Assembly (NCBI GenBank): GCA_040285855.1
Contig: JAUFOQ010000010.1
Location: 1,798,001-1,862,000, forward strand
Reading direction: 5' to 3'
DNA from: Eukaryota sp. GEM-RC1
Lineage: Eukaryota
DNA length: 64,000 nucleotides
In this document: in pieces, positions 1-40,294 of the stretch
Layout of the letters: every line of letters starts with the position of its first letter
Numbering within the stretch: position 1 is the first letter of the stretch
Translations under genes and position numbers: made by a program
The notes under the pieces: generated by a model
The model's database searches: none
What the model saw: only the letters and a program-made list of their open reading frames with translations
What the model was told of the DNA's origin: nothing

Positions 1-1875
1 GTGTATTTGAAACGTCTTGTTGAGGACTCTTGTCCTGGTGTTACTGCCAATAATCCTTTTCCTCTAACAAAATCACTGATTCCTAATCATATCAGATTGG
101 ATACTACATGGTTTAAAGAAGTTTATGCATCAGAAATGAAAGGTAGCTTTGATGACGTTCGAAAAGATATTTGGCACTCAGTTTTGAAACCAAAGTGTCT
201 TCCAAAGTCATTGTCTCATGACTTCAAATACAGTTCTATTTCTACAGATGGAGTTAGCTGTAGTTTAATGATGATGCGGAAAGATCTGCTTGATGGGAGA
301 GGAAATCCTCATAAGAAGGTGAAAGCAGTTGACTACACAGCTACTGAAAGGTACATTGATTCTTTGAGTTCCACAGAAATTCAAAACTTAAATTTGAAAT
401 CCAAAAGAATTGTTGCTATTGATCCTAATCAGCATGATTTGATGTATTGTGCTTCTTTAAAATCTGAGGAGGAAAAGAAAATCGAAGGTTTCGATACATC
501 AGCCAATCTCAGAAGAAGAAAGATTTCTCCAAAATCATCAAAGAAAAAAGGAAGCTTGAAAAAATTAAAAAAAGAATTGAAGGATTGGAAAGACGCACCC
601 ACTATTGACAAACCATCAACTGTCAAGTTGAAAAATCGTGATGATTGGAAAGTATTCAGATACACTGCTGGGGAGCGCAAAGCAGATATGAACAAGTCTC
701 CATGGAAAAGAAAAAAACAAAGAAGGAAAGAAAAAGAGCTAAGAGAAAGAAGAGGAAGCTGGAGAAGAAAATAAGACGATATAATCTCCACCGTTTGACT
801 GAATCTGAACGGTTACAACAATACTCTACCCAATTTATTCACATTCCAGATGGCAGACGCATTGACATAAATGGGCAACAAATTTTAGATCAATGGGGCT
901 CTAACTCGCCAGGTAGTAAATCTTGTGATTTGACTCTGTATTCTGCTTTTGTTCTTGGTAAAGAAATTACCTGTTCTTTACTACGATCACCCACTACTGA
1001 TCAAAGAACTACAGAAGGAATTTACGAAGAAAAGTGGTTTAGGAGGAATCGTCTCACACAATATTCAAGAAAGGAACGAAGTGAGAAAAACATGCTTCAC
1101 AGATTTGCTCTCCAGTTTGGAAACCCAGATGAAGTCGTTGTTGGGTATGGAGACTGGAACGACACTGCTTTTCGTCGAAGAAGAGGTAAAGCATCGACTG
1201 TAAAAGGTGCTTCAATTCGGAAATTACTGAGAAAATTTGGATTTAAAGTGTTCCTAGTTGATGAATTTAAGACCAGCAAATGTTGCTCTGCATGTGTTTC
1301 CAGAAACGACGAAGGTATCTGTTCCAATCCTGAAAGGATAAAAGTCACTGATCCTCATTGGAAGAAGAAGTTACAGAAGGAAGAGAAAAGAATTAAAAAA
1401 GGAAATTATGGAACACAATCTATTAGAAGAAAATGAAAATCGAAATTTTACCGAAGAATGGACAGACCAGTTGCAATTTTCGAAAGACAGATTAAAGAAC
1501 AACAAAGTCTCACCATGGGGCTTAGTTGAATGTGCTAAATGTCATGTCCTCTGGAATAGAGACTTCAATTCTGCTATTAATATTTACAATATTGTAAATG
1601 GAACCATTCAAGGTCAAGGTAGACCTGCCATCCTCGAGAGACCAAAATCTCAAACAACACCTGTCGTGGATGGCGGGAATACAGATCAGATTCCTAAGAA
1701 AAAGACTGTGAGTAAGGGTAAGGGTAAAGCAAAACGTCCTCTAACAAAAGTCAGAGGTCCTAACAAGTGTCGTATATGTTCTCAACCTGGACATAACAAA
1801 ACAACTTGTCCAAATAAGCCTAAGAAAGATGTACCCAAGGACTCACACGTAAACCAGAAAGATCAGGAATCTTGA
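1..1875 (+). CDS. Fanzor1-family RNA-guided endonuclease (eukaryotic TnpB homolog); 5' end outside window; two frameshifts in A-runs (~700-730, ~1395-1400)
   Basis: ORFs 1-774, 645-1436 and 1408-1875 join into one protein with the Fanzor1 motifs in order: FPLxxxxIPxHIRLDT, RuvC-I RIVAIDP (D 421-423), VVVGYGDW, rearranged RuvC-II VDEFKTSKCCSAC (E 1263-1265), and CAKC..WNRDFNSAINI (RuvC-III D 1561-1563). Confidence 0.9.
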
Positions 1876-1934
1876 ATCTATGAAGTTAGCTCGTCTTAAA
1901 AGACTTTGCGAATGAGGACATTTATTTGTTCAAA

Positions 1935-2031
1935 CTGTGAGTTTTGCTCATGAGTTTGCTTACGAGCTTGCTCATGAGATCATGAAAATGTGAAGGGTTA
2001 TGCCCTTATGCATTTGGAATGAAATTCACAG
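1935..2031 (+). ncRNA. Candidate Fanzor omega-RNA scaffold (5' boundary may extend to ~1880)
   Basis: Starts 60 nt after the Fanzor stop. Closing stem 1935-1945/2021-2031; hairpin 1947-1978 capped by GCU-UACG-AGC; hairpin 1986-2015. Several pairs are G-U. Ends exactly at the element terminus. Confidence 0.65.
2005..2031. repeat. Right terminal inverted repeat of the Fanzor element
   Basis: CTTATGCATTTGGAATGAAATTCACAG; its reverse complement matches 38171-38197 at 26/27 nt. Confidence 0.75.
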
Positions 2032-2446
2032 TATGATATATTATGAACTATTAGCCTGCCACCTTTTCATACAACATCATCTCTCATCCTCCTTACAAGT
2101 TGTGACGTGTCAATGATACTACACATTTAGTTCATTAGTATAGTTTATCAGCAATAAAGCCCGTACGTTCTTACTGTAGATTACACTGAACCTTAAATCA
2201 AGCAGTCTTATGAAAGACATCCCTGTTTGAGTGTATTTTATCAATCAGACGATACGTTCACTTCATTGGTATCCTAAGTGCCATTAACAGTTTAGTTTGG
2301 CAATCCGCGTTAACGCTCTAGTCAAATAATTTACCTTCAAGTAGCAAAAAGTTGATTTGTTTTTATTAGTTATTGAAATAACAACAAACAGATCATCGAG
2401 TTTTGATATGTTCACTTTCCATTACTTGTAACTGGTTTAGTAAAGC

Positions 2447-4572: not shown

Positions 4573-5996
4573 TACTGAAGTGCATTCACTATATTGAAGA
4601 AATTTTATCAAGTTGTTCGTCACTTTTATCTACTGATGTGCAAATTACACATGTTGTACACCGATCGTCATCAAGAATACGTTTTGAAAATATTTGATTT
4701 GAGTAAATTTGAGCTGAACCAAACACAACAAGAGGGCTTGACTTGACTCTTGAGTTAAATGAGCCTGACTCAAGCTGACTGACTCAAAACTCATTGAGTC
4801 AGCGTGAGTCAAAACTATAGTACTACTCACAATTCATCTCTCTTCATTTCAATCTCCCTATAACCTCCAACTAGCTTAACGTACACAACTGTAGCCCACA
4901 TTTTGTTGATCTGTCAAGTGATAGTTTCACACTACCAAATGGCCAACTAGGATCCTTCAGTGAACATTTAATAGACGTTTTGGAAGAGGAATAGTCAGTG
5001 ACAAAGAAGTTACAGACCAGGAATAGTAAAATGCATATTGAGAAGTAAATACTGAATCAACACTGTTGAACTTCTGTTGAAAATTGTAGTGATGCAAATC
5101 ATCACAGTTGTGATTAAATTCAATGTTAGTAAATAAACACAAAATTTGACGTAATTCAACGATGATAGAATGGAGACGTCTCTAGAGACACGAGACTTGT
5201 GGAGATTTAATTGTTTTGAATTAAAGCGAAGTGGCGTATTGTCCGATGAGATTTGTTCCACTTAATACAAACCCTCTTGAATGCGGTTTAAACTCTAATG
5301 GTATCCGTTTGCTAAATTTGGAACTACCTTACTCTGTGCAATGTTATGTTAAAACACTATGTATGAAGATCTCTTAGTTGATCACACTTCAAATGATTCT
5401 ATTATTATACATTTTGTTATAAAATTGATAGTAAAAAGTAGAAAACAATCATTACGATCGACAAAAGGGTTTCTTGAAAGTTGTCGATAAAGTGTGTTTA
5501 AGAAAGAAAACGCTTTTTATATAGAGTTTCGAAAATCGGAATCTACAGAAACATGGACGGTTACCAAAATGACCAAGATCTGCGGACAACAGATGAACTT
5601 GAATCAAACAAAGTATTTCTCCACATTAAAGCTATTTTGCGCAGGATCATGCATACCTTTTGAGAACATCATATCCCAATGTGTGGTGTGGTGCCTTATT
5701 TCCAGGTAAGCGACATGGTTGATTCCTCCAATATTTCAGAATATCTGAACATTGGTCTGATAAAAGAATAGATGGTGAAACTGTTGGAATGTTTAAGAAG
5801 GAAACTCATTGAAGGTCCATAAGAACAGTTAAGAGATGGAAATAACATCAAGATAAAAAGGAATTGCCCTTGAACTAGCAAAAGAAGTAGAAGAAGAGCT
5901 GTGGGAGTGAAGAATCATTGACTAGAACATTCTAAGGAGAGAAGAAGAGGCAGACTGCCCTTACAATGGTGTATGTCTTTGACATCAACTTGAAGA

Positions 5997-8463
5997 ATGC
6001 TCAATCTCATGGCCAATTCAAGTGACTCTCGACCCTCTTCTAGAACTTCCAACACCACTGACGTCAAAAGTCCTCCTTCTAAACGCCCTCGAGTTCTAGA
6101 TAATCTTGCTCTTCCAAATACTTATTGCTTCCCTTCCGATTGTTTCTGCAACAACCTCCATTCTCTGCAAAGAGACAATCTTCTTACTGATACTGTCATT
6201 ACCTACGATGGCAACTCTTTCCACTGTCATTCCTTCGTCGTCAGTGCTTTCAGTCATGTTCTTAAGGAGAAGGGTCTGGAATCTACCACAATAGAGTTCC
6301 CTCTACTTCCTTTTCTTACAGATTCTGATATCTTCTTCTCAGTCCTGACAACTCTCTATGGACAATCTCTTACTGTTACTCCTGAAAATGTCCCTATGCT
6401 TTCCATCATTGCTTCTCTTCTTCAGTTCCAGGAGTTAAGTGAGTTTGTTACTGAGAGAATGACAAATGGGTTGGGAAATTTTGAGGACAACAATTTTAAA
6501 TTGGACTCAAAAAAGTTAATTTTAAAAATTGTGAGGTCTTGCCCTAAAGACGTACGTGTTTCTTATAAAAACACGTCTGCTACTTTGAACTCTGTCTTAT
6601 TGATATCATTTTCAAAAATGTTTCATAATTTAATTACATGTGAATTTAAAGATTCTGCTGTAAGAAATTTTGAATATTCTGATGAATTTCCGGGTGTATC
6701 TGAAGATGTTTTTGCATTATTCTTCTGTCTTTTCCATTATGAAAATTCGGTTAAATTCGGTATTGCAAATATTTTAGAGTTTTTCCAGTTATCAGTTTAT
6801 TTTCAAGTAGATCAGTTGAAAATGGCTTGTCAAGACTTTCTTGTTACAAATTCTTTTCTAACGAAGAGATTTTTAATCTTTTAGATACGTGTAAGGAAAA
6901 AAATCAATTCTATTTTGTTGATCAAAATCCGGAAATATTTTCTATTATTTCAAATTTAGATAATGATCCTATTCCTCTAAGAATTTCTTTCATTACTTCC
7001 TTGCTGCCTGTTGTTGATCCTTTTTGGTTGTTTAAATGTTTAATTGAATTATATAAGAGTGAAAATTCTCTAGATCCAAAAACCAATGAATCCTTAAAAT
7101 TCTCAGATGAATTCAGAGTAGAATTTTTTAAAGTTTTCGAGTTTTTAGATTCATTTGGTGATTGTCACTTAGTTTCCACTTTATTGGAGTGGTCCATTTA
7201 TATTTTTCAAAATGTTAGAAGTTTTACCAATACTCCTCCAGATTGGTTTCTATGGACCTTACAAAAGAATTCTAATTTTTCACTGATTTAAAACTCTTTG
7301 GTGACTGTTTTCTTTCTATTGTTACAGTTCAGTCTTTAGAAAATTATCCCAATTTATGTTTGTCAAAGAGTTATCTTGAACTTCTTTGTTCAATACTTCC
7401 TGGTAAGTTTAGCATGTGGCTTGGAAAATGTCTTGTGAAATCTTGGAAGAATTCTGAGGAATCTGATTCTTCTTGGACAAATGACTCTTTTTCAAATGTA
7501 TCTCATTAATTATGGAGAAAGCTGATTTGAACGTGGTTAAGTTTTTAAGTTTTTTAATGGAGTTCAGCAACGATGGTAAGCTTGATTCAAAATTTTACTG
7601 TTTCGTTGCAAAGACTTCTCTTGACTTCTGCTCATCACGTGATGAAGAGGTCAGAATTGGGAATCAACATTATTCTCATGGAATGAATAGCTTCTATGGT
7701 AATACTGTATCTCAGAGTTATGAAAAAGCCTTTACCTTGTTCAATGAAGGTGCTAATCATAATCACGTTGATTCTCTTTTTAGTTTAGGAAGTTGTTATT
7801 ATCTAGGTCTAGGTGTTGAAAAGAATCTCTCCAAAGCTGTGGAATATTTTAAAAAAATCTGCTGAGTTGGGAAGTATTTTTGGTATGATCAATTCAGGAA
7901 TGTGTTTATATCCTTCAAAAGTAGATGTCAATGCCACAGAAGTCTTTATGTGGTTTAAAAAGGCTGCCGATCTAGGAAGCTCTGCTGGCCATCTTGGACT
8001 TTATCGCTGTTATGTTAAAGGTATAGGGGTTGAAAAGAACACTGAAGAAGCCTTTGGGCATTTACAAGTTGCAGCTGACATGGGACATCCAGAGGCTATG
8101 AATTTTATTGGTGTAACATTTAGCTCATTAAGTGAAGGTGATGACGAGGCTTTGAGCCAAGCTGCTGAATATTTTAAATTATCTGCTGATGGAGGTTGTT
8201 CTCATGGCATGGTGAATATGGGTTTTTACCACATGAAAGGTCGGAAAGTAGAAAAGAATGAACAAAAGGCGCTAGAGTACTTTCAAAAAGCTGTAAACCT
8301 AAAGAATCCTCATGCGGTCGTCCATCTGATAAATCTGTATAAAACTAAAAGGAAGATTGCAAAGAATATAGAATCGCTGAAATTCTGGGAAAATAAGAAG
8401 ACAGAATTAGAAGGTTGTGAACCCATTGATAATTTAAAAAGAAGAGGATTTCATATACTTTGA
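5997..8463 (+). CDS. BTB/POZ (x2) + SEL1-like repeat protein, frameshifted
   Basis: N-terminal BTB (LTDTVITYDGNSFHCHSFVVSAFS); C-terminal SEL1 repeats (LGSCYYLGLGVEKNLSKAVEYFKK); split over several ORFs, mostly at A/T runs. Confidence 0.8.
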
Positions 8464-10101: not shown

Positions 10102-12565
10102 CTACAACAACCCTCTTCTTTTCAAAACGTCAGTAGGTAAACAGCCTTTTAATTCTACCTTCTTTCTTTCCCAGTAATTTAGTGATTCTGATTGAGCTGG
10201 ATATCTAGTTGTGATTTTGTATACATCGATTAGTCTATCAATTGCAGAAATGTTGTTCAGTTTTGCTGATTGACGAAGCAGTTGTAGTCTTTTTGTTCAT
10301 CTCTACCTACTACACGACCTGTTCGATAGCAATTACCTAAATTAACTTTTCCATCAGAACAACCTCCATCAGCTGACAATTTAAAATATTTAAAAGCGTC
10401 AATTTCATTCATGTCCACGCCATCACCATCTGAGAGCAAACAACCCATAGTATTCATAGCCCCAGAATTTCCCATGTCAACAGCAGTTTCCAAGTATTCA
10501 AGCCCTTGGTCAATATTCACATCAACTCCCAAACCATTATCATAACAGTAATGAAGTCCGACAAAACCCTCTGAATTTCCTAATTCTGCCACATGTTTGA
10601 ACCAATTTAGTGCAATATTTTCATTTTTGTCAACTCCTTGGCCATTCAAGAAGCACCAGCCTAAATTAAGCATTCCATACATACTTCCCAACTCAGCAGA
10701 TTTTTTAAAACATTTCACAGCCTTTGCAAGATTCTTTTCTAAGCCTAAACCTAAAAAAAATAGCAACTTCCTAATTTGAAAATGGAATCGACGTGGCTAA
10801 GATTAGCACCTTCATTAAACAAGGTAAAAGCCTTTTCATAATTCTGTGTTACGGAATTTCCATTGAAGAAATTCAATCCATCTGAATACAGTTGATTACT
10901 AGCTTTGAGCTGTTCTTCACGCGATGACCAGAAGTCAAGAGAAGTCTTTGCAATGAAGGTTGTAATAGAGGGTCCAAGTTTACTATCGTTACTGATTTCC
11001 ATTAAGGAACTTAAGAACTTCAGTACATTCAAATTAGTCTTTTCCATAATTAATGAGATACATTTGAAAAAACAGTTATTTGTCCAAGAAAAATTGAATT
11101 CGTCAGAATTCTTCCAAGATTTCACCAGACTTTTTCCAAGCCACACGCAGAAATCACAAGGAAGTATTGAACAAAGAAGTTCAAGATAGTTCTTTGGCAA
11201 ACATAAATTAGGATAACTCTGTAGAGACTTAACTGTAACAATAGAAAGAAAACATTCACCAAAAAGATTTAAATCAGTAAAATAATTAGAATTCTTTTGT
11301 AAGGTCCATAGAAACCAATCTGGAGGAATTTTTTTAAAACATCTAACATTTTGAAAAATATAAATGGACCACTCCAATAAAGTGGAAATTAAGTGACAAT
11401 CACCAAATGAATCTAAAAACTCGAAAACTTTAAAAAATTCTACTCTGAATTCATCTGGAAATTTTAAAAGTTCATTGGTTTTTGGATCTAGAGAATGTTC
11501 ATTCTTGTATAGCTCAATTAAACATTTAAACAACCAAAAAGGATCAACAACAGTGATCAATGAAGTAATAAAAGAAACTCTAAGGGGGAAAGGTTGACCA
11601 CTATAATCTGAAAAAATTGAAAAAACTTCCGAATTCTGATCAACAAAATAGAACTGATTCTTTTCATTACAAATTTTTAGAAGATGCAAAATCTCTGTTT
11701 TAGAAAAACAATTAGTAATAAGGAAATCGTTACAGTCTAATTGAATTTGATCAACTTGGAAATAGACAGATAATTGAAAAAACTCCAAAATATTTGAAAT
11801 ACTCAATTTAACAGAATTCTGGTAATGGACAAGTCCGAAAAACAAACCAAAAACGTGTTCAGATACACCAGGAAATTCATCAGAATATTCAAAATTTCTA
11901 ACAGCTGAATCTTTAAATTCACATGTAATTAAATTCTGAAACATTTTTGAAAATGAAACCAATAAGACAGAGTTCAATGCAATAGCCGTGTTTTTATAAG
12001 AAACCTGTACGTCTTTAGGGCAAGACTCCACTACTTTTAAAATTAACCTTTTTATGTCCAATGTAAAAATGTTATCCTCAAAGTTTCCCAACCCTTTTGT
12101 CATTCTCTCAGTAACAAACTCACTTAACTCCTGGAACTGAAGAAGAGAAGCAATGAAGGAAAGCGTAGGGACATTTTCAGGAGTAACAGTAAGAGATTGA
12201 CCATAGAGAGTTGATAGGACTGGGAAGAAGATATCAGGATCTGTAAGAAAAGGAAGTAGAGGGAATTCTATTGTGGTAGATTCAAGACTCTTCTCCTTAA
12301 GAACAGGACTGAAAGCACTGACGACGAAGGAATGACAGTGGAAAGAGTTGCCATCGTAGATAATGACAGTGTCAGTAAGAAGGTTGTCCTTCTGCAACGA
12401 ATAGAGGTTGTTGCAGAAGCAATGTGAAGGGAAGCAATAAGTATTTGGAAGAGGACGACTATCTAGAACTCGAGGGCGTTTAGAAGGAGGACTTTTGACG
12501 TCAGTGGTGTTGGAAGTTCTAGAAGATGGCGGAGAGTGTCTTGAATTGGACATGAGATTGGTCAT
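10102..12565 (-). CDS. BTB/POZ + SEL1-like repeat protein, paralog of 5997-8463, frameshifted near 10755 and 10280
   Basis: The 604-aa ORF is highly similar to the plus-strand copy; SEL1 repeats continue in 10257-10766; same KRRG C-terminus, TAG at 10102-10104. Confidence 0.85.
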
Positions 12566-13339
12566 TCTTCAAGTCCATATCAAAGACATACACCAATGTA
12601 AAGGCAGTCTGCCTCGATCTCTCTCCTTAGACTGTTCTAGTCAATCATTCTTGTTCAGTCACTTCCACAGTCTCTTTTTCTATTTCTTTTGCCAGTTCAA
12701 GCTGAATTCCTTTTTGCCTTGATGTTATTTCCTTCTCTTAACTGTCCTTATGGAGCTTATCGGACGGTTTCTTTCTTCTTTCTTGACTTCTTCTAGTTCC
12801 ATGAGTCTTTAGCTTCTCTTACTTACTGTACATTGAATTTGAACTCATCCAAACATGTGACATGCTTTGAGTTACATAATTCCAGTCAATGATGAAAGAA
12901 AATTTTCAGCATTAAGTAAACAAAAATAGTCATTTTTTCTTAAATGAATGAAAACAGCATTCTATAATTCATGTTGATTGTCTTCAGTTTGGGCAACTCT
13001 TGAAAGTGATTGTTCGATGTCAGCGTTCTTTAAAACTTGGGTGCTTCTTGTTTTACCTATTACAATGTCAAAAATATCCGTTTCTCGGAAATATTTGGCT
13101 TCCCACACATTTAAGTATGAAAACATATTTTTTCAAAAAAGTGGATTCGAAAAAGTCTAGATGACGCATGTTGAAGCATTTCCTCAGGGATGTGGGTTGA
13201 AATGGGGTTATCGATAACTGTTCAAAAAGAAAAAGTATATGTGACTCTAGTACAACCGAAGTTTCTGCTCTCTTTTGATTAACCAAAGTAATTGTCTGTA
13301 CTTTAAGTATGGACCCATTGACCATGACACGTGGCACCA

Positions 13340-14740
13340 ATTTCCACCTGGGGATGGATCTTTACACAAAGGCATGTGGATTATAAGGTTTTCGACTGTG
13401 ACGTCAAGGATATCGTCATAGAACAGTCATACTTATCACCAAACGTTCTTGCTCCCGTAACAATATAGTAATTAAGTTCTATGGGGATGATTGGTTTATT
13501 AAAGTCCAAGACAGCATACATACGATTATAAGTAAGACTTATTGGGAAAAACATTGTTAAAAAGAGACAAAAGTCTTCAACAATAAGTCAATTTTGACGT
13601 GAAACAGATTTGAGCATATCAAAAGTAATACCTGAAGGTCCAGGAGCTTTTCTTGAAGGGAGTTTTAAAATACAACTCATCAACTCATCCACTCTAATGG
13701 GGTTTTCTTTTCAATACAAAGAAGGCATAGGCTTGACCGGAGAAAATTCTTCAATGGATGAAGAACCTGAAGTTGAGAAACAGGAGCAGGATCTGATGAA
13801 AATAAGGCATTTTTAGCTGACCCATACCTACCCCGAAGAAGTTGTTGACATACATCTTTTTCATTTGGTAATTTTTTTGGAGCAAACACTTTCTTAGGGC
13901 GAGTGGAGGATTGAGATTGTTTCTCAAGAAAAAACTTCCAGATGTGAAGAACATCCCAAGAACCTGGTGAAAGCGCTAGAATAAAAGACCGAAAAGCAAT
14001 AGAAAAAGGAATGCAACCTTTGGGGCTGAGTTGATTAGGAATTTTAACAAGAGTTCGAAGAGTATCAGCAGAAAGACAATCTCCACTAATCAAATAATTA
14101 TTTTTAATTAGAGAAAACGCAGAAACAGTTTTGCAAAAATTACATTCATTGGACTGGCCAAAGTTTGTAAAAGAATTATCAGAAAGAGGCGGGAGGTTGT
14201 GTTTTGCTGTAACCTCAGAAGTGACAGCCAGATTGTCTACAAAATTAGAGACTTCTGCAATGGCAGCTGACAGGGAATCAGGACTTTTAGGCAAATCAAA
14301 ATTTGGACATACTTCTGATTTTTTTCTGTGTCCTAATTGACCACAAGAAGAACAGTTCGGTAGGGCTCTTTTCCGAATTGGCTGAGAAGTAGGGATCGCA
14401 ACTTTAGGAGAAGATTGGATGGATGTGGAAGCAAAGTTAGATTCGGAGAAGATATCAGAAAGAGAAGATTTATTGTAGGGAACAAAAATGGGATTAGAAG
14501 AAGAAACTGACAGAGAACTTATTAAATCCTCTGTTTGTGATGCTAGAACCTGACAAGAACTGGAAATACTGACTCTGAATCACGAGACAAAGAATCACCA
14601 GAAGCAGAAAGATCACTTTCCGGAAGAGTAGAAGAGGGAGTAACTACAAGCTTAGCCAATACACATGGTGATATTTTTGGTATCTTGTTCCTTGGTTTAT
14701 TGGGGAGACGGAGTCTACCAGAAAATCTGGCAGAACTTCA
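13340..14740 (-). mobile_element. 5'/central remnant of a CRE-like non-LTR retrotransposon ORF
   Basis: N-terminal knuckle CSSCGQLGHRKKSEVC; RGRYGSAKNAL...LHP; SRKAPGPSGITFD pre-RT motif. Confidence 0.6.
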
Positions 14741-24248: not shown

Positions 24249-24984
24249 TATGGGAATAATTTTTGTTGATGAACCCTCCCTTTGTAACCAAACCATTACA
24301 TTTAATGAAGAATCCATTGAAGTCAATAAATCTGTCCTTGCTGCTCATTCTACGTACTTCCGACCCCTCTAGTTCTTAGAGTTTGGGGATAAACTCGAGA
24401 GCCCCATCGACTTCTCACATCTCCCTGTTGATTCCCACAACTTCTTCGCTTTCCTCAAGTCCCTCTTCGGAAAGTCATTCACCCTCAACGAGAGCAATGC
24501 TTATGACTTCTACTATCTCGTCCACTACTTCCAAGTGAACAAACTGATTGATAACATTAGAAGATCACCTAAACACTCATCTCGTGACCTTAACATGACT
24601 GTAGCTAACCCACACCAGCCTTGGGTTGGCTATATCATTGAGACCTGTATGGATTGCTTATTTTTGCTGACATCAGCACAATCCTTTTCGAGCTCTAAGA
24701 CATGCTGCCAGAAAGTTTATGATCGCAGTTTCTGGAAAATCACAGACGTTAGACAACTAAGGATCATGTATTTCGTGATTGCCTGTCAATGCCTCATAGT
24801 TGCAAGTTTTACTATTGATCACGATTTAAAGACTATTCCTTTCAATTATTAGAATGAATGGGGACTTACTTGAGAAACTGTTTCAGTAATTGAATTAGAT
24901 AAATTCATTTAGAAAACTGCTTCCTTCTGATACTCCTTCTCTTTTCTCACTGTTGAATATGCCAAGGAGCTCTGCCAAGGTGTA
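24249..24984 (+). pseudogene. BTB...protein-kinase pseudogene (kinase part resumes at 26864)
   Basis: ITFNEESIEVNKSVLAAHSTYF BTB motif; EYAKELCQGV joins SYLHSKSIVHGDLKPGNVL after the insertion. Confidence 0.65.
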
Positions 24985-25079
24985 TAAATTAATCTTCATG
25001 CATTAATTCCGATTCATTCGACATCCCACAAAACAGAAACTCAAACAGAAACAAAAATATTTATTTTTTTAGCAGAAAA

Positions 25080-25544
25080 GTGATTAGTTGGTTGGGATTA
25101 ATGACGAACCCTCAGTTGTCCGCAACTAAAGTTAAAGTTAGATTCTATGAAGCGATGGAAGATCTTCCGATCCAAAATTTCTTGATGGAATTAACTCAAC
25201 TCCATCGAAACGAAGTATCGAGAAATGCGATGGAAAGAACTTTCACAGACTACGACATTGGAGATGACTATTTCCATTTAATCGAAAAAACTATCGAAGG
25301 TTTAATTAGGGATGATCGACGACAAAAGCAATGGACCCCAATCAACATCATCTTCAAGCTCTCAAGAATCTTGACCTATCATTATTCCAATTCTGAAGTC
25401 GTCAAGAAGAACAAAAACGATAGAGCCTTAACTGTTCATTACAAAAGAGTTTGGATTCAAATGCTACTCCAAAGCTACAAACCATTTACGATGGATTATA
25501 TTCAGGAATTATTCCTCGAATTGAAAGAGAGGATGGAGCTTTAA
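25080..25544 (+). CDS. Hypothetical protein (duplicate of 31069-31533)
   Basis: 154-aa ORF open in both copies with a few substitutions; no motif recognised. Confidence 0.5.
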   Translation: MISWLGLMTNPQLSATKVKVRFYEAMEDLPIQNFLMELTQLHRNEVSRNAMERTFTDYDIGDDYFHLIEKTIEGLIRDDRRQKQWTPINIIFKLSRILTYHYSNSEVVKKNKNDRALTVHYKRVWIQMLLQSYKPFTMDYIQELFLELKERMEL

Positions 25545-25659
25545 AATGATCGACCAATTAAGGAATAAATTATATTTTTCTTCGTCTTTGGCTGGACCAA
25601 TAATGAAGAAAAATGATCAAAGATCGGAAAATTGCTTTTAGTTTCGAAATAAGTTTACT

Positions 25660-26384
25660 ATGCCTAGATTTTCCGATCTCTTAGCTGCTACTACTGCAAA
25701 GCCTTCTCCCACCGAGACCTCTTCTCTCCCTCAAACAGAGCATTCTCCCCCAGAACCCACTGCTCGCGTTGAAGAAGAGGATTCTCTTGAAGACCAAGTT
25801 ATCGTAATTCCCCCTGAATCCTTGTCGGCCGCCCCTACTCGGACACTTCCTCCTCCTCCTCGCCGTCGCACTAATGCTCCTTCTGGGGATCTCCCCCCGC
25901 AGAACCCGCTGAGGAAAGTTCTCCTGAACCTACTCTCGCCGAGCCCCTCATTGATGCCGTTCGTCCAACTCGTCCCGTTCCCCTAGCCCCTCCTGTTCGC
26001 AATTCCGGTAGTCGTGGTCGTGGTGGTCGTGGTGGCCGTGGTGGTCATGACAATGCCGTTCCTAGGATGCCTGGTCCCACTCAAGCTCGTCCATTGAGGA
26101 TTAGAGCTCATGTAGTAAATGGGATTTTGTGTATTCCCGAGTCGGGCATTGATAAGAAGGTTCCCCTCAATATGATTTCCACAAGAGCTGACGGGACTTA
26201 TGTTGTCGAGTTGTCGGTGGTAATGACCCTTGAACACCACCACTCCGACAGAAATCCCCCTCCTATGGATCCAACCATTTATCGACATGAGGATTGGCAA
26301 GGGGCCATGCAGGCTTCTAGATTCCAGTCCCATATTCTTAGACAGAATCCAGGGAACCCAGAGAACCCAGAGGACGGTGAGTAA
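25660..26384 (+). CDS. Pro-rich, RGG-containing hypothetical protein (~241 aa once the C-run is corrected), copy 1
   Basis: ATG 25660; the C-run is 6 nt here and 8 nt in copy 2, and 7 would give one ORF; RGRGGRGGRGG box. Confidence 0.6.
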
Positions 26385-28299
26385 GGATTCACCGCGTGGC
26401 GTGATTGGGGAGGTCACGTCATCAGTAAACTTCACGCAGGTTGGTTCAGTTCGCTGGATCCGACGCCTCTGCAACAACTTCAGGTTTGGGGTGTGTGTTC
26501 CTTGCATGCTCTTTGCCTTACTCCTCGCTCGTATTGGAAATTCGACTGACTCTTAACTTGCAGGTTCACCGCAGCAAGTCGCACAGTTGAAGACGTATCA
26601 TTTCATTGGTTGATTATTTACAAATATCGAATGAACGTCTACGAGAACAAAAATATTTTTTATCTTCAGAAAAATGAATGGTGGATCGATGGTCGCCAAC
26701 TTTGTATTTTATTTTTCGACGAAAAATTGGAAAACTAGGTAGGTTATTTTCGGAAATCAAGTCTGGAGAGGAAGCAGGAAAGGGATGGAGTGATCGTAGT
26801 AGTTAGAGCGGAAATCTGCCAAGTCGGAAGAGAGTTGGTGTCGGAGGCCATCTAACGATGGTGTAAGCTATCTCCATAGTAAGTCAATTGTCCATGGAGA
26901 TCTCAAACCAGGAAATGTGTTGATTGTGATGATAGATTTGTTGTTGTTCTTAAGCTATGCAAGATGTACACTATGATTCCAAAGTTGAATATAAGTACTG
27001 TCAATCTGTCTTCTATGTCCATTAATTGTTTTTAATTGGGTAACAAGTGATCAAAGTAATGACCTTGATTATTGTAATTTTGTACACCAAGAATAGCTAA
27101 AAAATGACTAAAATTTTGAAAAATGAATTTTTGAATATGATGAAATTCTGAGTAGTGAAAATTCCTTCCTCCACTGAATAGAACTACACATATTATATAA
27201 ATCAATACAATTTAAAAAAACACGTCAAAAATAAATCTTTTTATTAAATCCAAACGAGATAACAAATCTAAGTTCATCTTTCATTGAAATCGTTTTAACC
27301 AATATCCATGAGAAACACGCGTGTTGATGCCCTTGTAATTCCAGATCTTCACGCAAGTCTGAGAACTTTATCTACTGATTCAATGATGACGTGTTCATGG
27401 GGTTATTACTAGCACTGAAAACAACCAGAGTAATAGAGAAGATTTGTTATCATATATTGATGGTGACGTTTGCTAAGGTCATAAAGCACGTCATCTTTTG
27501 ACTCTAGAAGTAGTAGTACTTGATGGTTGTTGACAATGAAAGACAGAAGACAAAGACATTGAAGTGAGACAGGGTGAAAATCAACAGACTCTAAGGAAGT
27601 ATAGGTAGTAGAACCAAAGAAAGTAACAGTCTTACTTTCACAAGTACTAGCAAACATCGATGACGTGTCACCTACGATTGATAACGTGTCACTTAGAGGA
27701 CTTACTGAGGAGTAACTAGTTTCACCACTAGTGAGTAGAATCCAATAGTAAGTACTGAGAAGTAGAGGAGATCTAGTAATGGAAGAGAGAAGAAGTAGAT
27801 AGTTGGAGTGAAGAACTAGAGAGATGAAAGGTTGGTAGGATTCAGAAAACTTCTGATCTTTTGGGGAGTGTTAATATTCCTTAGTGTTTCTGAGAGAGTG
27901 TGTAGGAGAAGTGAAGCTGAGAGTTAGCTTCAGCGTTTGAGGAAGAGGGATCGAACTGACTCCTGTTTTGAACAGCACGGTGTATAAAGTCATTCATCAT
28001 CTTCTCTTTCAAGGACCTAGTTGGAGGAAAAGGATGACGTGATTTCCCTCTCCTTGAGGGGGGAGGGGGAGGGCGATCGACGCGATGATCATAGGTAAGT
28101 GAAGCTCGAAAATAAGCAGGATTGGAACAGCACAAGCTATCGTAAGGGCCCAATATTGTATCTAGGAATGGAAAGAAATGTTCCTCAAGAGCATTGTGTT
28201 GTATTTTCGAGAGACATATACAATGATATGAATCATGGGAATACTCAGACTTATGAGCCAAAGCTCTCAAAGAAAGAGAATGTATTTGCTCATGTTCTA

Positions 28300-30017: not shown

Positions 30018-30995
30018 ATGGACATCAACCGCGAACTTAAACGTGTTTTTCAAATTTTGAACGATATCGCCCCAGAAGGCGAAACTACTTCCCATCTTCC
30101 TGAAGGAAATCCTCCCTCAGAGGAAACTGCAAAAAAATTCAGGAATCGATGCAAGAAATACGGAATCCCAATCCCAGAAAACTTCACTACTCGGAAATGT
30201 TGTGAACATTTTATCCACGAAGACATGGTTAGTGGCAATTACGCATTAATCCCACGAGGACTATTCTCAGAAAAATCTTTCTACGAGAAACCAGATTTTG
30301 CCGAAAGAACGGATTATGGTGTGTACGATCTAGAAGCCGAATTCTATCGTTATGAAGAATGTAAACAATTCCGCCTTATTCACGGAGAATCCGGATTTAG
30401 AAACCCCATCGTAGCCTATTCATTGGCTCTTTTGAATCGATATGGGGTTCTTCAAAGAAATCCCATCAGTGAAAACTATGAAACGGTTTTGAAGTTGGTT
30501 GTTCTCAGACTTAAAACACTTCAAACATTAGAAGGAGTATCTCGCGTTGATAAAATCCGCAATAATAAATTCCTTAAACTCCTCACCGATGCTGAAGACG
30601 AATGCATTGAATATGGACTTACTGACGAAAGATGTAGAGGTTTATTCAACCTCTATATCGACATTTGTGAAGTCGCCTCTCAATCCAACTATATCCAAGA
30701 TTATGCAAAAGAGTTAGTTGATGATCAAATCATTACTAAATTCTTCAAAAAATACTTCGATGTAGCTTTTTCCGTCAAGACTCAAAGGTTCTTGGCCGTC
30801 TTTATGTTAGCATACGTGCCCATTTTAAAAATACCTTCATCTTCTAGTTATCGCGAATTCGCAAAAACTTTAGATAAGGTAAAGAATCATGATCGACGAA
30901 GAATCAGAGTTCCAAATATAAATTTCGTTAGACCTGGTAAATTCATTGGCACCAGAGTTTTCCACGACTTTTATAAATTAATCTTCATGCATTAA
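30018..30995 (+). CDS. Hypothetical protein (325 aa) of the orphan cluster
   Basis: Uninterrupted ATG-initiated ORF; no family recognised. Confidence 0.7.
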   Translation: MDINRELKRVFQILNDIAPEGETTSHLPEGNPPSEETAKKFRNRCKKYGIPIPENFTTRKCCEHFIHEDMVSGNYALIPRGLFSEKSFYEKPDFAERTDYGVYDLEAEFYRYEECKQFRLIHGESGFRNPIVAYSLALLNRYGVLQRNPISENYETVLKLVVLRLKTLQTLEGVSRVDKIRNNKFLKLLTDAEDECIEYGLTDERCRGLFNLYIDICEVASQSNYIQDYAKELVDDQIITKFFKKYFDVAFSVKTQRFLAVFMLAYVPILKIPSSSSYREFAKTLDKVKNHDRRRIRVPNINFVRPGKFIGTRVFHDFYKLIFMH

Positions 30996-31068
30996 TTCCG
31001 ATTCATTCGACATCCCACAAAACAGAAACTCAAACAGAAACAAAAATATTTATTTTTTTAGCAGAAAA

Positions 31069-31533
31069 GTGATTAGTTGGTTGGGATTAATGACGAACCC
31101 TCAATTGTCCGCAGCTAAAGTTAAAGTTAGATTCTATGAAGCGATGGGAGATCTTCCGATCCAAAACTTCTTGATGGAATTAATTCAATTCCATCGAAAC
31201 GAAGTATCTAGAAATGCGATGGAAAGAACTTTCACAGACTACGACATTGGAGATGACTATTTCCATTTAATCGAAAAAACCATCGAAGGTTTAATTAGGG
31301 ATGATCGACGACAAAAGCAATGGACCCCAATCAACATCATCTTCAAGCTCTCAAGAATCTTGACCTATCATTATTCCAATTCTGAAGTCGTCAAGAAGAA
31401 CAAAAACGATAGAGCCTTAACTGTTCATTACAAAAGAGTTTGGATTCAAATGCTACTCCAAAGCTACAAACCATTTACGATGGATTATATTCAGGAATTA
31501 TTCCTCGAATTGAAAGAGAGGATGGAGCTTTAA
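31069..31533 (+). CDS. Hypothetical protein (154 aa) of the orphan cluster
   Basis: Open in both duplicate copies; start codon uncertain. Confidence 0.5.
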   Translation: MISWLGLMTNPQLSAAKVKVRFYEAMGDLPIQNFLMELIQFHRNEVSRNAMERTFTDYDIGDDYFHLIEKTIEGLIRDDRRQKQWTPINIIFKLSRILTYHYSNSEVVKKNKNDRALTVHYKRVWIQMLLQSYKPFTMDYIQELFLELKERMEL

Positions 31534-31640
31534 AATGATCGACCAATTAAGGATATTTTTCTTCGTCTTTGGCTGGACCAATAATGAAGAAAAATGATCA
31601 AAGATCGGAAAATTGCTTTTAGTTTCGAAATAAGTTTACT

Positions 31641-32367
31641 ATGCCTAGATTTTCCGATCTCTTAGCTGCTACTACTGCAAAGCCTTCTCCCACCGAGACC
31701 TCTTCTCTCCCTCAAACAGAGCATTCTCCCCCAGAACCCACTGCTCGCGTTGAAGAAGAGGATTCTCTTGAAGACCAAGTTATCGTAATTCCCCCTGAAT
31801 CCTTGTCGGCCGCCCCTACTCGGCCACTTCCTCCTCCTCCTCGCCGTCGCACTAATGCTCCTTCTGGGGATCTCCCCCCCCGCAGAACCCGCTGAGGAAA
31901 GTTCTCCTGAACCTACTCTCGCCGAGCCCCTCATTGATGCCGTTCGTCCAACTCGTCCCGTTCCCCTAGCCCCTCCTGTTCGCAATTCCGGTAGTCGTGG
32001 TCGTGGTGGTCGTGGTGGCCGTGGTGGTCATGACAATGCCGTTCCTAGGATGCCTGGTCCCACTCAAGCTCGTCCATTGAGGATTAGAGCTCATGTAGTA
32101 AATGGGATTTTGTGTATTCCCGAGTCGGGCATTGATAAGAAGGTTCCCCTCAATATGATTTCCACAAGAGCTGACGGGACTTATGTTGTCGAGTTGTCGG
32201 TGGTAATGACCCTTGAACACCACCACTCCAACAGAAATCCCCCTCCTATGGATCCAACCATTTATCGACATGAGGATTGGCAAGGGGCCATGCAGGCTTC
32301 TAGATTCCAGTCCCATATTCTTAGACAGAATCCAGGGAACCCAGAGAACCCAGAGGACGGTGAGTAA
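31641..32367 (+). CDS. Pro-rich, RGG-containing hypothetical protein, copy 2
   Basis: ORFs 31641-31895 and 31855-32367 join at the C8 run 31874-31881. Confidence 0.6.
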
Positions 32368-35052
32368 GGATTCACCGCGTGGCGTGATTGGGGAGGTCAC
32401 GTCATCAGTAAACTTCACGCAGGTTGGTTCAGTTCGCTGGATCCGACGCCTCTGCAACAACTTCAGGTTTGGGGTGTGTGTTCCTTGCATGCTCTTTGCC
32501 TTACTCCTCGCTCGTATTGGAAATTCGACTGACTCTTAACTTGCAGGTTCACCGCAGCAAGTCGCACAGTTGAAGACGTATCATTTCATTGGTTGATTAT
32601 TTACAAATATCGAATGAACGTCTACGAGAACAAAAATATTTTTTATCTTCAGAAAAATGAATGGTGGATCGATGGTCGCCAACTTTGTATTTTATTTTTC
32701 GACGAAAAATTGGAAAACTAGGTAGGTTATTTTCGGAAATCAAGTCTGGAGAGGAAGCAGGAAAGGGATGGAGTGATCGTAGTAGTTAGAGCGGAAATCT
32801 GCCAAGTCGGAAGAGAGTTGGTGTCGGAGGCCATCTAACGATGGTGTAAGCTATCTCCATAGTAAGTCAATTGTCCATGGAGATCTCAAACCAGGAAATG
32901 TGTTGATTGTGATGATAGATTTGTTGTTGTTCTTAAGCTATGCAAGATGTACACTATGATTCCAAAGTTGAATATAAGTACTGTCAATCTGTCTTCTATG
33001 TCCATTAATTGTTTTTAATTGGGTAACAAGTGATCAAAGTAATGACCTTGATTATTGTAATTTTGTACACCAAGAATAGCTAAAAATGACTAAAATTTTG
33101 AAAAATGAATTTTTGAATATGATGAAATTCTGAGTAGTGAAAATTCCTTCCTCCACTGAATAGAACTACACATATTATATAAATCAATACAATTTAAAAA
33201 AACACGTCAAAAATAAATCTTTTGATTAAATCCAAACGAGATAACAAATCTAAGTTCATCTTTCATTGAAATCGTTTTAACCAATATCTATGAGAAACAC
33301 GCGTGTTGATGCCCTTGTAATTCCAGATCTTCACGCAAGTCTGAGAACTTTATCTACTGATTCAATGATGACGTGTTCATGGGGTTATTACTAGCACTGA
33401 AAACAACCAGAGTAATAGAGAAGATTTGTTATCATATATTGATGGTGACGTTTGCTAAGGTCATAAAGCACGTCATCTTTTGACTCTAGAAGTAGTAGTA
33501 CTTGATGGTTGTTGACAATGAAAGACAGAAGACAAAGACATTGAAGTGAGACAGGGTGAAAATCAACAGACTCTAAGGAAGTATAGGTAGTAGAACCAAA
33601 GAAAGTAACAGTCTTACTTTCACAAGTACTAGCAAACATCGATGACGTGTCACCTACGATTGATAACGTGTCACTTAGAGGACTTACTGAGGAGTAACTA
33701 GTTTCACCACTAGTGAGTAGAATCCAATAGTAAGTACTGAGAAGTAGAGGAGATCTAGTAATGGAAGAGAGAAGAAGTAGATAGTTGGAGTGAAGAACTA
33801 GAGAGATGAAAGGTTGGTAGGATTCAGAAAACTTCTGATCTTTTGGGGAGTGTTAATATTCCTTAGTGTTTCTGAGAGAGTGTGTAGGAGAAGTGAAGCT
33901 GAGAGTTAGCTTCAGCGTTTGAGGAAGAGGGATCGAAACTGACTCCTGTTTTGAACAGCACGGTGTATAAAGTCATTCATCATCTTCTCTTTCAAGGACC
34001 TAGTTGGAGGAAAAGGATGACGTGATTTCCATCTCCTTGAGGGGGGGAGGGGGAGGGCGATCGACGCGATGATCATAGGTAAGTGAAGCTCGAAAATAAG
34101 CAGGATTGGAACAGCACAAGCTCCGTCGGCAGAGAGAGCATGTAGATAATCCAGTAGTTGTAACTAAGGGAAACAACAAGTTATATGAACAACGGGCTTG
34201 TTTAGAACTCGAGGGCGCTTTGAGGAAGGACTATTGACAGTAGTGATGTTGGAAGTTAGCCTAATCTCAATTCCAGCTCTGACTCATCATCTATTTCTTC
34301 AAACATATCAAAGACATACAACAATGCAAAGGCAATCTGCCTCGTTACCTCTCCTTAGAGTGTTCTAGTCAATGAGTCTTCTTCTTAATTCACTTCCGGT
34401 TTTCCTCTTTTGATCAAATCAATTGAGTTCTAGATGTATTGCTTCTTGCCTTGTCATTCCTCATTTCTCTGAACTTTCTTTACTAATGTGCTTCGTCGGG
34501 AACTTCTTCTTTGTGTGTGTCCTCTGGTGGTGTGCTGTTTGCATCAGCATTTACCTTCTATTTTACTCTTTTTATATTCAATTTGAACTAGTGTGTATAC
34601 ATGACTTGATTCCATTCGATGATGACCGACAATTTTAACCAGTAAGTATTTTCGTAAAGCATTTTAATCCGTACAAATTTTCTATTGTATCACTTTGTCT
34701 CACGAATGGTTGTTTGTGTATTTTAGGCACTTTATCAGATAGACCTTTGACATTGATTTGACTTTGTTCACGTCAGCTCCTTGAGATCAAATCGACTGTC
34801 ATTGTCCCTTAATGACAAAGTATTGTACAAAACATGTAGTGTTTGTCATAAGTAACTTTGGTGTCTTCAGAGATTCAGTTGTTGTGATTCCTTCAGATTG
34901 CTACAAACACTTAATACTCCTGACAGTAGTTCTCAATTATCATTGACTTAGATTTAAGTTCACCAATTTTAATTCATTTTTCTATGTTCAATCAATTAAG
35001 ATTTAATCTCGTAAGGCATATTGAAAAACACTGATCTTGTGTTAGATAAATA

Positions 35053-36885: not shown

Positions 36886-37584
36886 CAGGGATCGAAAAAA
36901 ATAAATTGTATTGCGAAATACATTATATTGCAATAAATATTGCACGTCTTTTGATGTGCAATATATTTATTACAACAAAGGGTTAATTGCAATATATTGC
37001 AATATATTTCCAACATATTGCAATATGTCACAACGAGATTTATGCAGAGTAACTCTAACAAGTCTTGTTCATAAGAACACTTTCTTTCACTGTATATCCA
37101 CTCCAAGTCCAAAAAAGTTAAAAGGGGACCTACAGTTGGTTTCTACATCTCTATTGTCATCACTCAACACATACTTCAAGCAATGAGATTTGTGGAAACT
37201 GGTACATGTGTTTATTTACGTATCAATAAAGACACGTTCCAATCATAGTGGCACCCAGCAATACAATTTATTTTTTTCGATCTCTGTCCAGAGTCTGTAC
37301 CAGGAAGTATAATTAATGTTCTTATGCATGTATCTGAAAGGGTAACCGACTAAAAACTCTGTTGAACTAGTGTTTGATTTTCAGTCAGTAAATTTCAGCA
37401 GAGCGTCTCAATTTCTAACATTTTGACGAACTAAATTTTACCCAAAATATTGCAATATATTGCAATTATTTATTGCAATCATCACCGTTTTCAATATATT
37501 TATTGCAATGATCACATCTACCAATATATTTATTGTACGATTTTTATGCTAGCAATATATTGCAATATATTTTTTCGATCCCTG
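36886..37584. mobile_element. hAT-type MITE
   Basis: TIR CAGGGATCGAAAAAAATA; 8-bp TSD TTTTACTT (36878-36885, 37585-37592); TATTGCAATA subterminal repeats. Confidence 0.9.
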
Positions 37585-38000: not shown

Positions 38001-38228
38001 GAATCAAACAAGTGTTAATTAAAATACAAATTGTTGTTTGGTATATTAATTAAATAAGCTTACTAAGTTGCTTCTTTGTTTCGAATACTCCAACCCATTT
38101 GTCAAAGATTTAGTTACATTTGATGAAATGAATCGCTACTATGGAACTAAACTGTTCAACAATCCTATTTCTGTGAATTTCTTTCCAAATGCATAAGCCG
38201 TGTTTCTCTTCAGTCTAACTTCAATTAC

Positions 38229-40184
38229 ATGACGTTATCCAATGATCCTGAATACCAAGAATTAGAAGGAAGAGTAATAGAACGCCTTTTATTTACTCTT
38301 ACAAATACAAACTATCATCATTATTAACAAATGAGATACAAATACCTCTATATCATCTCAAATTCATGTCTCAATGCAAAGAGACAGTTCAAAATTGAAT
38401 CAAAATACCTAAACAATGCTTTGAAAAGGGAAAACGACAACCTTCCTCTCCAGTAACTTTCATTAAAATTCTTTCCATACTGCTTACACAATTTGCCAAA
38501 ATCTGTGAGAAATTGTTGACCGAAGCAACCAAACTTACCATAAAGAGAAATAGCAAAAGGATGGAAAACAAAAGGATTGTGTCGGCGACAATTCATCTTG
38601 GAAATTAATTCGCCATAACGATCTAATTTTTTCTTTCAGCAGTTTCAAGAGATGAATAGTTTTCGTCTAAAATTTTGTTAACGGAAGTTGAGTTACAAGG
38701 ATCAACCGTAGTAAAGTCCATAATTATTTCTTGAGAGGACAAACAAGGACCAGTCAAATCACCTCTGCTCTTATCTCTCATAATATCCGTCATACAAAGT
38801 ATTTAAAACTGGTTCGATTTTCCCATGAAAACCATTGCTCTTAAACAATTCTAAACATTGATCACGTAAACTGTTGTGACTAATTGATCTTAAATGAATA
38901 AACTTATGACAGTTGACCACATGATGTAAAGAGGCTAAAGAAGAACCACACACACAAGTAAACTTTTAAAGAAGACCAACAGGCCATAAACCCAACCTCA
39001 AACGAATGTGGAAAAGCCATTCATGATCTTTTAAGTTGAAACTATATCTTTGAGGATATCGGGTAATCAAAGTAGAAGCCTCATCACTAGAAATGTCTTT
39101 CCTAAAAGCACAAAAGCGGGACTCTCGATTTTAGCCAAGCTAATACGATTGTTAAAGTCCAAGCTTTCATGATAGTTTCTAGGAGTACTTGATTCTGTTC
39201 GAAAAAATGGTACTCCTTCTTTAAATGTACTCATACTTGGCCATGAAGTTGGGCAAAACTTGTCAAACAACGACTAGATAATATTGTTACAAAGTCTAAG
39301 GTTAAAATGATTGAATCTTATATTAAAAGAGCTCATCAAATAAGGTACTCTCCGTTTGAAACATTTTTTTTAAATACTATTCACCATTCATCTGTTTTCG
39401 ATTAGGTCCAGAATTTACTTTATGTTGCTGTTCCAATTGTCACTGATACTGATACAGATGAACCATCAGATGAACAAGCAGGTGTTTTCGATGCTAGTCG
39501 TCCTATTAAATTAGAAATTATTGAAGATCAACCGGGTACACTTGAACCTAACATGTGGGGACTAGAATTCAAACTACTATAATAGAATTGCTAGACTGGC
39601 GAAATTATTTTATATTGAACTCAAAAAAATCAACTGTTGTATGTGATCACGATTACAAATAAGCAATCTTTAAACAGTACCGATGATATTATGACTGTAC
39701 AAGAGTCTTTAACAAACATAATTTCTAAAACAAATGAGGCCTCAACTCAAAATCAGTTTGCCCTCGTGTACAAATTCGTAATGGAGATGCCGTTGTTTTC
39801 AATTTGGATGATGATATTGATTCTGCCATGGATATGATTGCTCTTCAAAATGAAGGATATGAGGAGCTTATCTTTCTTCACACTCATCATTGGATGAACA
39901 ATTTTCTTAGTGAGACTGATATATATTCACAAATCACTTTAGTTGCTCCAACTATTAATGAGAAAAATCCACCAGCAATTGTTATTTCTTGGAATGATTT
40001 GAAAGGTGAAAATTTCATTGGCTTGACTGTGAAGGCATACGAGTTGTCTGACTTAGGTCTAAAACTTGCAAAAGAAAAACGTTCTAATTCTTATAAAGAT
40101 GAAGAAATTGAAAAGTTTATCGAAGAAAATCGGTCAAAACTTTATAATAAAGTTAAACCTTTTGAAAACTCTTCTCATTTTTAA
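38229..40184 (+). pseudogene. JAB1/MPN+ (JAMM) metalloprotease, deubiquitinase-like; interrupted by a retroelement and frameshifts
   Basis: Exact JAMM motif HTH-x7-S-x2-D (HTHHWMNNFLSETD, 39879-39920); upstream EQAGVF (E 39472); downstream AIVISW..VKAYELSDLG as in AMSH/Prp8-type MPN folds. ATG 38229 reads in frame into 39422 once 38290-39417 is removed. Confidence 0.7.
38290..39417 (-). mobile_element. 5'-truncated RLE non-LTR retrotransposon insertion
   Basis: CGSSLASLHHVVNCHK..HNSLRD zinc finger; DLTGPCL...IIMDFTTVDP endonuclease; FHPFAISLYGKFG; CTTT at both junctions. Confidence 0.75.
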
Positions 40185-40294
40185 ATAATAAATTTAATTA
40201 ATTATTTAAAAACTAAAAATAAATAAAAAAAATTGAATTTTTTTTAATATTTTTGTTTTGAATTTTTTTTAAAATAAACATCTTTGTATAAATA

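Follow-up and report, generated by a model that had tools for sequence, protein, structure and literature searches.

Positions 1-2031 of the window, by which is meant the whole 64,000-nt stretch of DNA that was analysed, probably are the right part of a multi-copy DNA transposon, which carries a Fanzor1 nuclease with its full triad and a predicted omega-RNA; in this reading the two breaks of the coding frame are likely read errors, and the gene likely starts with a PolB-type exonuclease. Near-identical products were found in protein searches under the NCBI name Eukaryota sp. GEM-RC1, which is the same as Skoliomonas sp. GEMRC, a free-living metamonad (PMC11316075). Positions 1-1875 are the 3′ part of the Fanzor1 gene. 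They are tiled by three overlapping open frames, 1-774 in frame 1, 645-1436 in frame 3 and 1342-1875 in frame 1, and the path joined through them runs without an in-frame stop, just as had been noticed in the original prediction. The features of this part are as follows.

1-705, plus strand: Fanzor1 coding segment 1 in frame 1, the end of REC/WED and RuvC-I (phmmer to SpuFz1, E=7e-08; collinear with residues 21-255 of the paralog P0193).
421-423, plus strand: RuvC-I catalytic Asp in IDPN (D in 92% of the deep-alignment rows; aligned to IDPN of SpuFz1).
481-870, plus strand: lineage-specific basic insertions between RuvC-I and RuvC-II, at about 481-645 and about 720-870, on either side of the bridge-helix FRYT motif (almost unoccupied in the other Fanzor1 rows).
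706-709, plus strand: break 1, an A-run one base short as compared with the read-through paralogs P0193 and P0194.
711-1385, plus strand: Fanzor1 coding segment 2 in frame 3, RuvC-II with the catalytic Glu at 1263 and the first CxxC at 1284/1293 (phmmer to SpuFz1, E=8e-05; to PpFz1, E=2e-04).
1362-1500, plus strand: helical-hairpin insertion of about 45 aa within the zinc finger (TNB), with helices 474-494 and 503-519 at pLDDT of at least 90.
1386-1389, plus strand: break 2, an A-run one base longer than in 11 of the 12 paralogs spanning it.
1390-1875, plus strand: Fanzor1 coding segment 3 in frame 1, with the second CxxC at 1531/1540, RuvC-III Asp at 1561, the C-terminal tail and the stop.
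1768-1809, plus strand: C-terminal CCHC zinc knuckle (Pfam zf-CCHC_2, E=0.006, below cut-off).

The family to which the window gene belongs is closer to Fanzor1 than to Fanzor2, TnpB or Cas12, both by sequence and by fold. When a profile of 94 sequences was compared with the PDB, the top matches, all of them solved Fanzor1s, were SpuFz1 (1e-111), PpFz1 (2e-110) and GtFz1 (2e-74), and the next match came at 6e-04. For the fold, an alignment-based model of P0193 (pLDDT 75.4, pTM 0.70) was used instead of its single-sequence fold (pLDDT 36). This model ranks Fz1 first in Foldseek (E 2e-17), and VIA-align gave Z of 17.6 to Fz1 (rmsd 6.4, 374 aligned) versus 9.4 to Fanzor2 and at most 9.8 to TnpB. 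Thus the Fanzor1 identity, which had been proposed from the letters of the DNA, is borne out by the best PDB matches in sequence and fold, namely SpuFz1, PpFz1 and GtFz1. Pieces 2 and 3 also match halves of Pfam Cas12f1-like_TNB, below cut-off. Scans of metagenome and viral contigs with P0193 or with the 27-nt repeat described below returned no matches.

The triad appears complete, with D at 421 (IDP), E at 1263 (DEFKTS) and D at 1561 (NRD) in columns of the deep alignment conserved at 92%, 94% and 89%, and both CxxC pairs are present (cysteines at 1284, 1293, 1531 and 1540), in agreement with what had been claimed for them. The catalytic Glu lies six residues ahead of the zinc finger (E442, then C449, in P0193 numbering), and the RuvC-I Asp is followed by Pro (DPN, like SpuFz1). 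Such a rearranged Glu and such a Pro are used as Fanzor1 criteria (PMC13565253; PMC10711439). The motif order of Bao and Jurka, D...[TS][TS]xx-C4 zinc finger-X(5,50)-RD, is found as D161, T445-S446, C449/452/531/534 and R540-D541. Its spacer D-X(125,275)-[TS] takes 283 residues here, 8 above the descriptive bound of 2013, because of the insertions; that of PpFz1 takes about 272. The comparison set of other Fanzor1s was made of 49 sequences kept from 145 further matches by length (520-900 aa) and motifs, and spacing was measurable in 47 of them: from D to E the median is 172 (range 158-271) versus 281 here, and from E to D it is 55 (range 35-79) versus 99 here. The extra length consists of the two basic insertions around the bridge helix and the helical hairpin within the zinc finger, the latter being the most variable part among paralogs (12 variable columns in the bin 481-510). 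The zinc knuckle is found in many members of the clade described below and in none of the 49 other Fanzor1s. RNA-guided, TAM-dependent cutting of the Fanzor1 type is the predicted function of the product.

Among known systems SpuFz1 of Spizellomyces punctatus (PDB 8GKH, 9CEU-9CEZ; PMC10432273) is the best match in sequence and in Foldseek, with the motifs IDPN, DE.KTS and WNRD, and the likeness extends to its many young copies between inverted repeats of about 30 nt, their omega-RNA lying after the stop codon and before the right end (PMC10432273). The window family differs from it in having about 110 more residues from the first D to E and about 45 more within the zinc finger, a C-terminal zinc knuckle, a predicted scaffold of about 145 nt versus 75-80 nt, and relatives of 1470 to about 1600 aa with extra N-terminal domains. 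PpFz1 of Parasitella parasitica (PDB 9CF0-9CF3; PMC11423790) gives the top VIA-align Z of 17.6, tied with SpuFz1, and has an insertion of about 100 aa in RuvC, called FRI, which is described as an exception among Fanzor1s that are usually 600-700 aa in size and conserved in domain layout (PMC11423790). The insertion in the window gene is different: it is made of two basic, mostly helical or disordered stretches without a sequence match to FRI, and neither exonuclease nor knuckle is reported for PpFz1.

How much of the gene is in the window? The frame is open at base 1, and the left edge of the window cuts it, which had gone unmentioned in the original prediction, as had the C-terminal zinc knuckle. 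Base 1 corresponds approximately to SpuFz1 residue 247 (the fold of P0193 aligns from SpuFz1 residue 227), and therefore the window misses 246 or more codons of the recognition lobe; the whole 5′ part outside it is probably over 900 codons. The REC/WED lobe is present in the relatives P0009, P0212 and P0033, and in the sister family (P0215 and P0015) at least 940 residues precede the first codon of the window. Thus "possibly intact", as the gene had been called, can be kept for its 3′ part only: the N-terminal REC/WED part is outside the window, and not one of the 22 listed models of the window's own family reaches the N-terminus or is full length. It is to be noted that a cleavage assay on the repaired ORF of 1-1875 would fail regardless of the truth, since this ORF is without the N-terminal lobe.

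The family is young and multi-copy. Protein clusters gave 8 sequences for the 5′ piece and 26 for the 3′ piece, 15 of them among the matches listed, and 22 paralogs were examined after P0197, the window's own product, had been left out. P0186, P0193 and P0194, each of 644 aa, match 1-1872 over a gap-free alignment with 588-598 identities in 624 (94-96%) and hold the whole triad in one frame; as their first residue is an internal Met, 20 codons ahead of the window, they are not full length either. Is the whole family then a decaying relic in this lineage, of which the read-through paralogs are leftovers? We consider this very unlikely. Full-length models are 0 of 22 in the listed family and 0 of 13 in the P0001 family, and exonuclease and Ulp1-like domains of GEM-RC1 have lost catalytic residues, as a relic would have it, but wherever one of the 22 models covers the triad motifs these are intact, the conserved columns (143 of 621) hold only 10 of the 85 variable sites, and RCL has whole ORFs. 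With 18 private residues per 621, against 0-8 in the others, the window copy diverges more than any other of the family. These 18 substitutions avoid conserved columns (P=0.02, a modest value as sites cluster), and the copy's own lack of stops is uninformative (P0=0.29).

Compared with its close paralogs, the window copy has one A fewer at 706-709 and one A more at 1386-1389. The first break lies within 695-735, where it had been predicted, while the second is just to the left of the predicted 1390-1405. Distant homologs had placed break 2 at 1355-1358, a position overturned by the close paralogs. Introns as the cause were rejected on the gap-free alignment of the read-through paralogs to 1-1872. 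Four of the eight paralogs crossing break 1 read through it, as do 11 of the 12 spanning break 2, and P0186, P0193 and P0194 read through both. It is rather likely that both breaks are long-read errors and that the copy is open over 1-1875. In all of the 11 paralog models that end prematurely, the end follows a one-base slip within three or more like bases in a row, and none ends at an in-frame stop; eight of the slips were aligned or shared with the window, those of P0166 and P0169 were placed by hand from short tails, and in P0195 the run is longer than that of the window. Under neutral decay about 4.5 nonsense changes would be expected with the 65 private substitutions (nonsense/missense ratio 0.07) and none was seen, although this test is biased, since a stop may lie unnoticed ahead of models that start at an internal Met. 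Breaks at homopolymers in other genes of the window, which had been pointed out together with those of Fanzor1, are also found, as in this gene:

52000-52450, minus strand: GNA1, whose G6 run has one G too many.

The GNA1 break lies near 52160-52174, and the next frame continues GNA1-like to a stop; GNA1 is normally an essential gene. Compared with its paralog, a BTB-SEL1 gene is interrupted at several runs of T and of A, and homopolymers hold four of the five gaps between two 99%-identical 3.1-kb repeats of the window. On the other hand, the genes of a flavodoxin-FAD-NAD reductase (581 aa; 56056-57801, minus strand) and of NADAR (51250-51768, plus strand) are unbroken, and therefore the breaks are not uniform across the window.

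There is a second way to explain the breaks, namely that the window copy is truly dead, one or both indels being real slippage in a non-essential cargo gene, while other copies are intact and active. Fanzor is not the transposase, and so a broken copy can still spread; homopolymers, moreover, attract true slippage mutations as well. P0170, P0168 and the two accessions of P0164 have break 1 as well. At 706-709 the short A-run is the state of the majority, inferred in six of the eight paralogs crossing it, two of which offset it by an extra A upstream in a run absent from the window; thus this break may be a real inherited deletion, even if the original prediction of long-read errors is likely to be right. 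The +1 of break 2 is also found in P0187, and the window copy is the most divergent one. We nevertheless regard a dead copy as rather unlikely: near-identical sisters, P0014 and P0194, break at different runs, nonsense-terminated models are 0 of 11, and GNA1, essential as it is, breaks in the same way. The named assembly is based on Nanopore reads, and its fragmented BUSCOs amount to 8.9% versus 3.0% in its transcriptome, as compared with 5.3% versus 4.6% for RCL, which speaks for read errors; its correction with Illumina reads speaks for real indels (PMC11316075). Programmed recoding, either a -1 ribosomal frameshift or transcription slippage on A-runs, is extremely improbable: there is an A-AAA-AAA heptamer in the upstream frame at 711, and each upstream frame closes with AAA and then a stop codon, but the heptamer is followed by no stable structure (-7 kcal/mol over 78 nt), reading through occurs in paralogs that lack it, and the breaks scatter over nine different runs.

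The window has other repeated sequences. Likely another mobile element is a family of 99%-identical 3.1-kb repeats whose ORFs are unassigned, present at 24983-28138 and 30972-34122, with partial copies at 20358, 41801 and 50264. Inverted paralogs with BTB and SEL1-like repeats, 81% identical and broken at homopolymers, are at 5994-8463 (plus strand) and 10109-12568 (minus strand), and a zinc-knuckle ORF of 299 aa at 13680-14579 (minus strand) is possibly a piece of a retroelement.

Behind the stop codon of the Fanzor1 gene, the following features are related to the ends of such elements.

1890-2036, plus strand: predicted omega-RNA scaffold of two small hairpins and a three-way junction (1930-2036), the closing stem pairing 1934-1943 with 2023-2032.
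2005-2031, plus strand: likely right terminal inverted repeat, ending in CACAG (26 of 27 match at 38171-38197, the similarity of the two copies ending at one and the same base; chance expectation 0).
38171-38197, minus strand: the 27-nt repeat again, facing as would the left end of a plus-strand element that has decayed.
39256-40507, plus strand: remnant, in decay, of the N-terminal part of a related Fanzor1; 39256-39762 contains stops, 40304-40507 is about 70% identical, and an insertion of 540 nt divides the two (tblastn with P0212, E=1e-17 and 2e-25).

An omega-RNA had been suspected just 3′ of the ORF, and a three-stem fold is indeed predicted there. For 1850-2050 the folding energy is -57.6 kcal/mol (z=-3.84), a value reached by none of 200 shuffles, and 1901-2050 has z=-5.0, below the lowest of the 88 background tiles (-4.5); the plus strand has a slight advantage (-5.45 versus -4.27). 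Rfam gave no match for this region. The closing stem of the three-way junction uses the last bases of the 27-nt repeat, and so the right end may carry a three-stem omega-RNA that includes the terminal repeat, as modelled on one sequence, without covariation. Fanzor1 RNAs are described as three-stem folds including the terminal repeat and the duplication (PMC10711439), and 30-nt repeats have been described around SpuFz1 (PMC10432273). In the window element the target-site duplication and a guide of 14-15 nt are predicted to follow at about 2032-2048. The evidence for a transposon consists of one end and of the second repeat copy, which points at the Fanzor remnant 1.1 kb away. The bases after the two repeats differ, TA versus AA, and therefore duplication and superfamily are not assigned; within the window, no transposase, left end or target-site duplication was seen. 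A search of 38198-39300 for remains of the exonuclease scored no better than other regions of the window.

Within the remnant there is a frame of 148 aa (39738-40184, plus strand), followed by a tract of 7% GC and without a Pfam match at 0.01, whose HxH-x7-S-xx-D motif we take to be JAMM/MPN-like. It splits the remnant between residues adjacent in relatives, and looks like a captured or retroposed gene piece. An AT-rich palindromic stretch at 36901-37050 (fold z=-4.5), which resembles 37520-37580, is perhaps a miniature inverted-repeat element.

The window family belongs to a clade of 18 rows (SH-aLRT 100), in which it is sister (92) to P0212/P0214/P0200/P0208; the tree was made by a quick method from 51 rows, several of half length, of which the 33 outside the clade were chosen from the further matches mentioned above. 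Members are Skoliomonas-annotated Fanzor1s with large insertions in RuvC and the zinc finger, often with a C-terminal zinc knuckle. Many models of the sister family and of a third sub-lineage (P0179, P0200-P0210, P0183) have two such knuckles, and in the sister family DEFKTS is replaced by DEFMTS. An N-terminal domain of PF03104, the PolB-type 3′-5′ exonuclease, is above the Pfam cut-off in P0003, P0009, P0033, P0171, P0173 and P0215 (P0212 was labelled as exonuclease-bearing via its overlap with P0215, not by its own Pfam match), and in none of 22 other Fanzor1 homologs longer than 700 aa. The domain is fused in three sub-lineages, and it aligns across all three together with the linker into REC, which argues against an artefact of gene models. 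Exonuclease-bearing lineages stand on both sides of the first split of the clade, and by parsimony on the tree the window family likely has the exonuclease as well.

The nearest solved relative of this domain is yeast Pol delta (E=4e-04). The clade differs from Pol delta and other family-B proofreading exonucleases in having Fanzor1 fused and no polymerase domain, and the domain is not visible within the window. In RCL, P0033 and P0171 (1473 and 1479 aa) are whole, with the RuvC triad and all three exonuclease motifs kept. These motifs, which we take to be Exo I DxE, Exo II NxxxFD and Exo III YxxxD of the DEDDy type, are all kept in P0173 too, while the Exo II and Exo III aspartates are missing in P0009 and P0215, and the exonuclease of these GEM-RC1 sub-lineages is predicted from its sequence to be inactive. 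Loss of catalytic residues in two GEM-RC1 lineages says that the activity is dispensable there. Ahead of the exonuclease, P0033 and P0171 have a 2A-like peptide GDVEANPGP, at residues 104 and 113, where P0173 has NLGP instead. Residues 1-150 of P0215 are a region like Ulp1/Peptidase_C48 (Atlas features 0.91; TM 0.63, a lead), probably inactive, as what is presumably its catalytic Cys appears as Ser; P0033 gave no usable Atlas match. The 2A motif is given in an abstract as D(V/I)ExNPGP, which the peptide of P0033 and P0171 matches.

The natural fusion of Fanzor1 with an exonuclease, which the original prediction was not in a position to see, may be new, not being found in the literature searched. 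Searches joining Fanzor with fusion, exonuclease, DnaQ, DEDD or 2A gave no natural fusion among the matches listed, Repbase, supplements and subscription papers being outside the scope, and no paper was found in which Fanzor and metamonad occur together. The word exonuclease does not occur in the accessible text of PMC10711439, PMC3627910, PMC10530073, PMC10432273 and PMC13565253. DEDDh nucleases are described as separate cargo of P and piggyBac elements (PMC3627910), and the accessible part of bioRxiv 2025.08.27.672191 deals with engineered systems only. Engineered fusions of TREX1, TREX2 and T5 to MmeFz2 are similar in joining an RNA-guided nuclease with an exonuclease, but all of them impaired MmeFz2 (PMC12923547), whereas in the clade the fusion would be natural and co-evolved, on a Fanzor1.

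How would such an element work? The transposase would come from upstream or in trans. A transcript through the right end would be trimmed to the three-stem omega-RNA, its last 14-15 bases being a copy of flanking DNA, and the protein-RNA complex would cut the empty donor site after excision; recombination would then copy the element back (restorative homing). Cutting of an emptied donor site followed by restoring recombination is described in PMC13565253. In the RCL relatives, where DxE, NxxxFD and YxxxD are kept, the most likely task of the fused exonuclease would be the trimming of 3′ ends, either on the omega-RNA guide or on cut DNA. In the two GEM-RC1 sub-lineages, where the aspartates of the second and third motifs are lost, it would act as a module for nucleic-acid binding. 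A 3′-5′ polarity would not yield the 3′ overhangs that recombination needs, and therefore classical resection is unlikely.

A further proposal, which we make tentatively as it is still somewhat doubtful, is that a clade of giant Fanzor1s (about 1500-1600 aa) is active in Skoliomonas-type metamonads, with a captured Pol-delta-like exonuclease processing guides or cut ends, in some members released by 2A and in others accompanied by an Ulp1-like domain and knuckles, and that the window locus is a working member of it. The single locus alone is one more copy, whose integrity is uncertain. If the proposal is true, this would be the first natural Fanzor that is nuclease plus exonuclease, and a natural counterpart to the engineered exonuclease fusions, which failed on Fanzor2. 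The clade extends Fanzor1 to metamonads and about doubles its usual size, and its exonuclease, catalytically complete in one species, where P0033 and P0171 are already in public records as whole ORFs, offers a direct test of guide maturation or cut-end processing.
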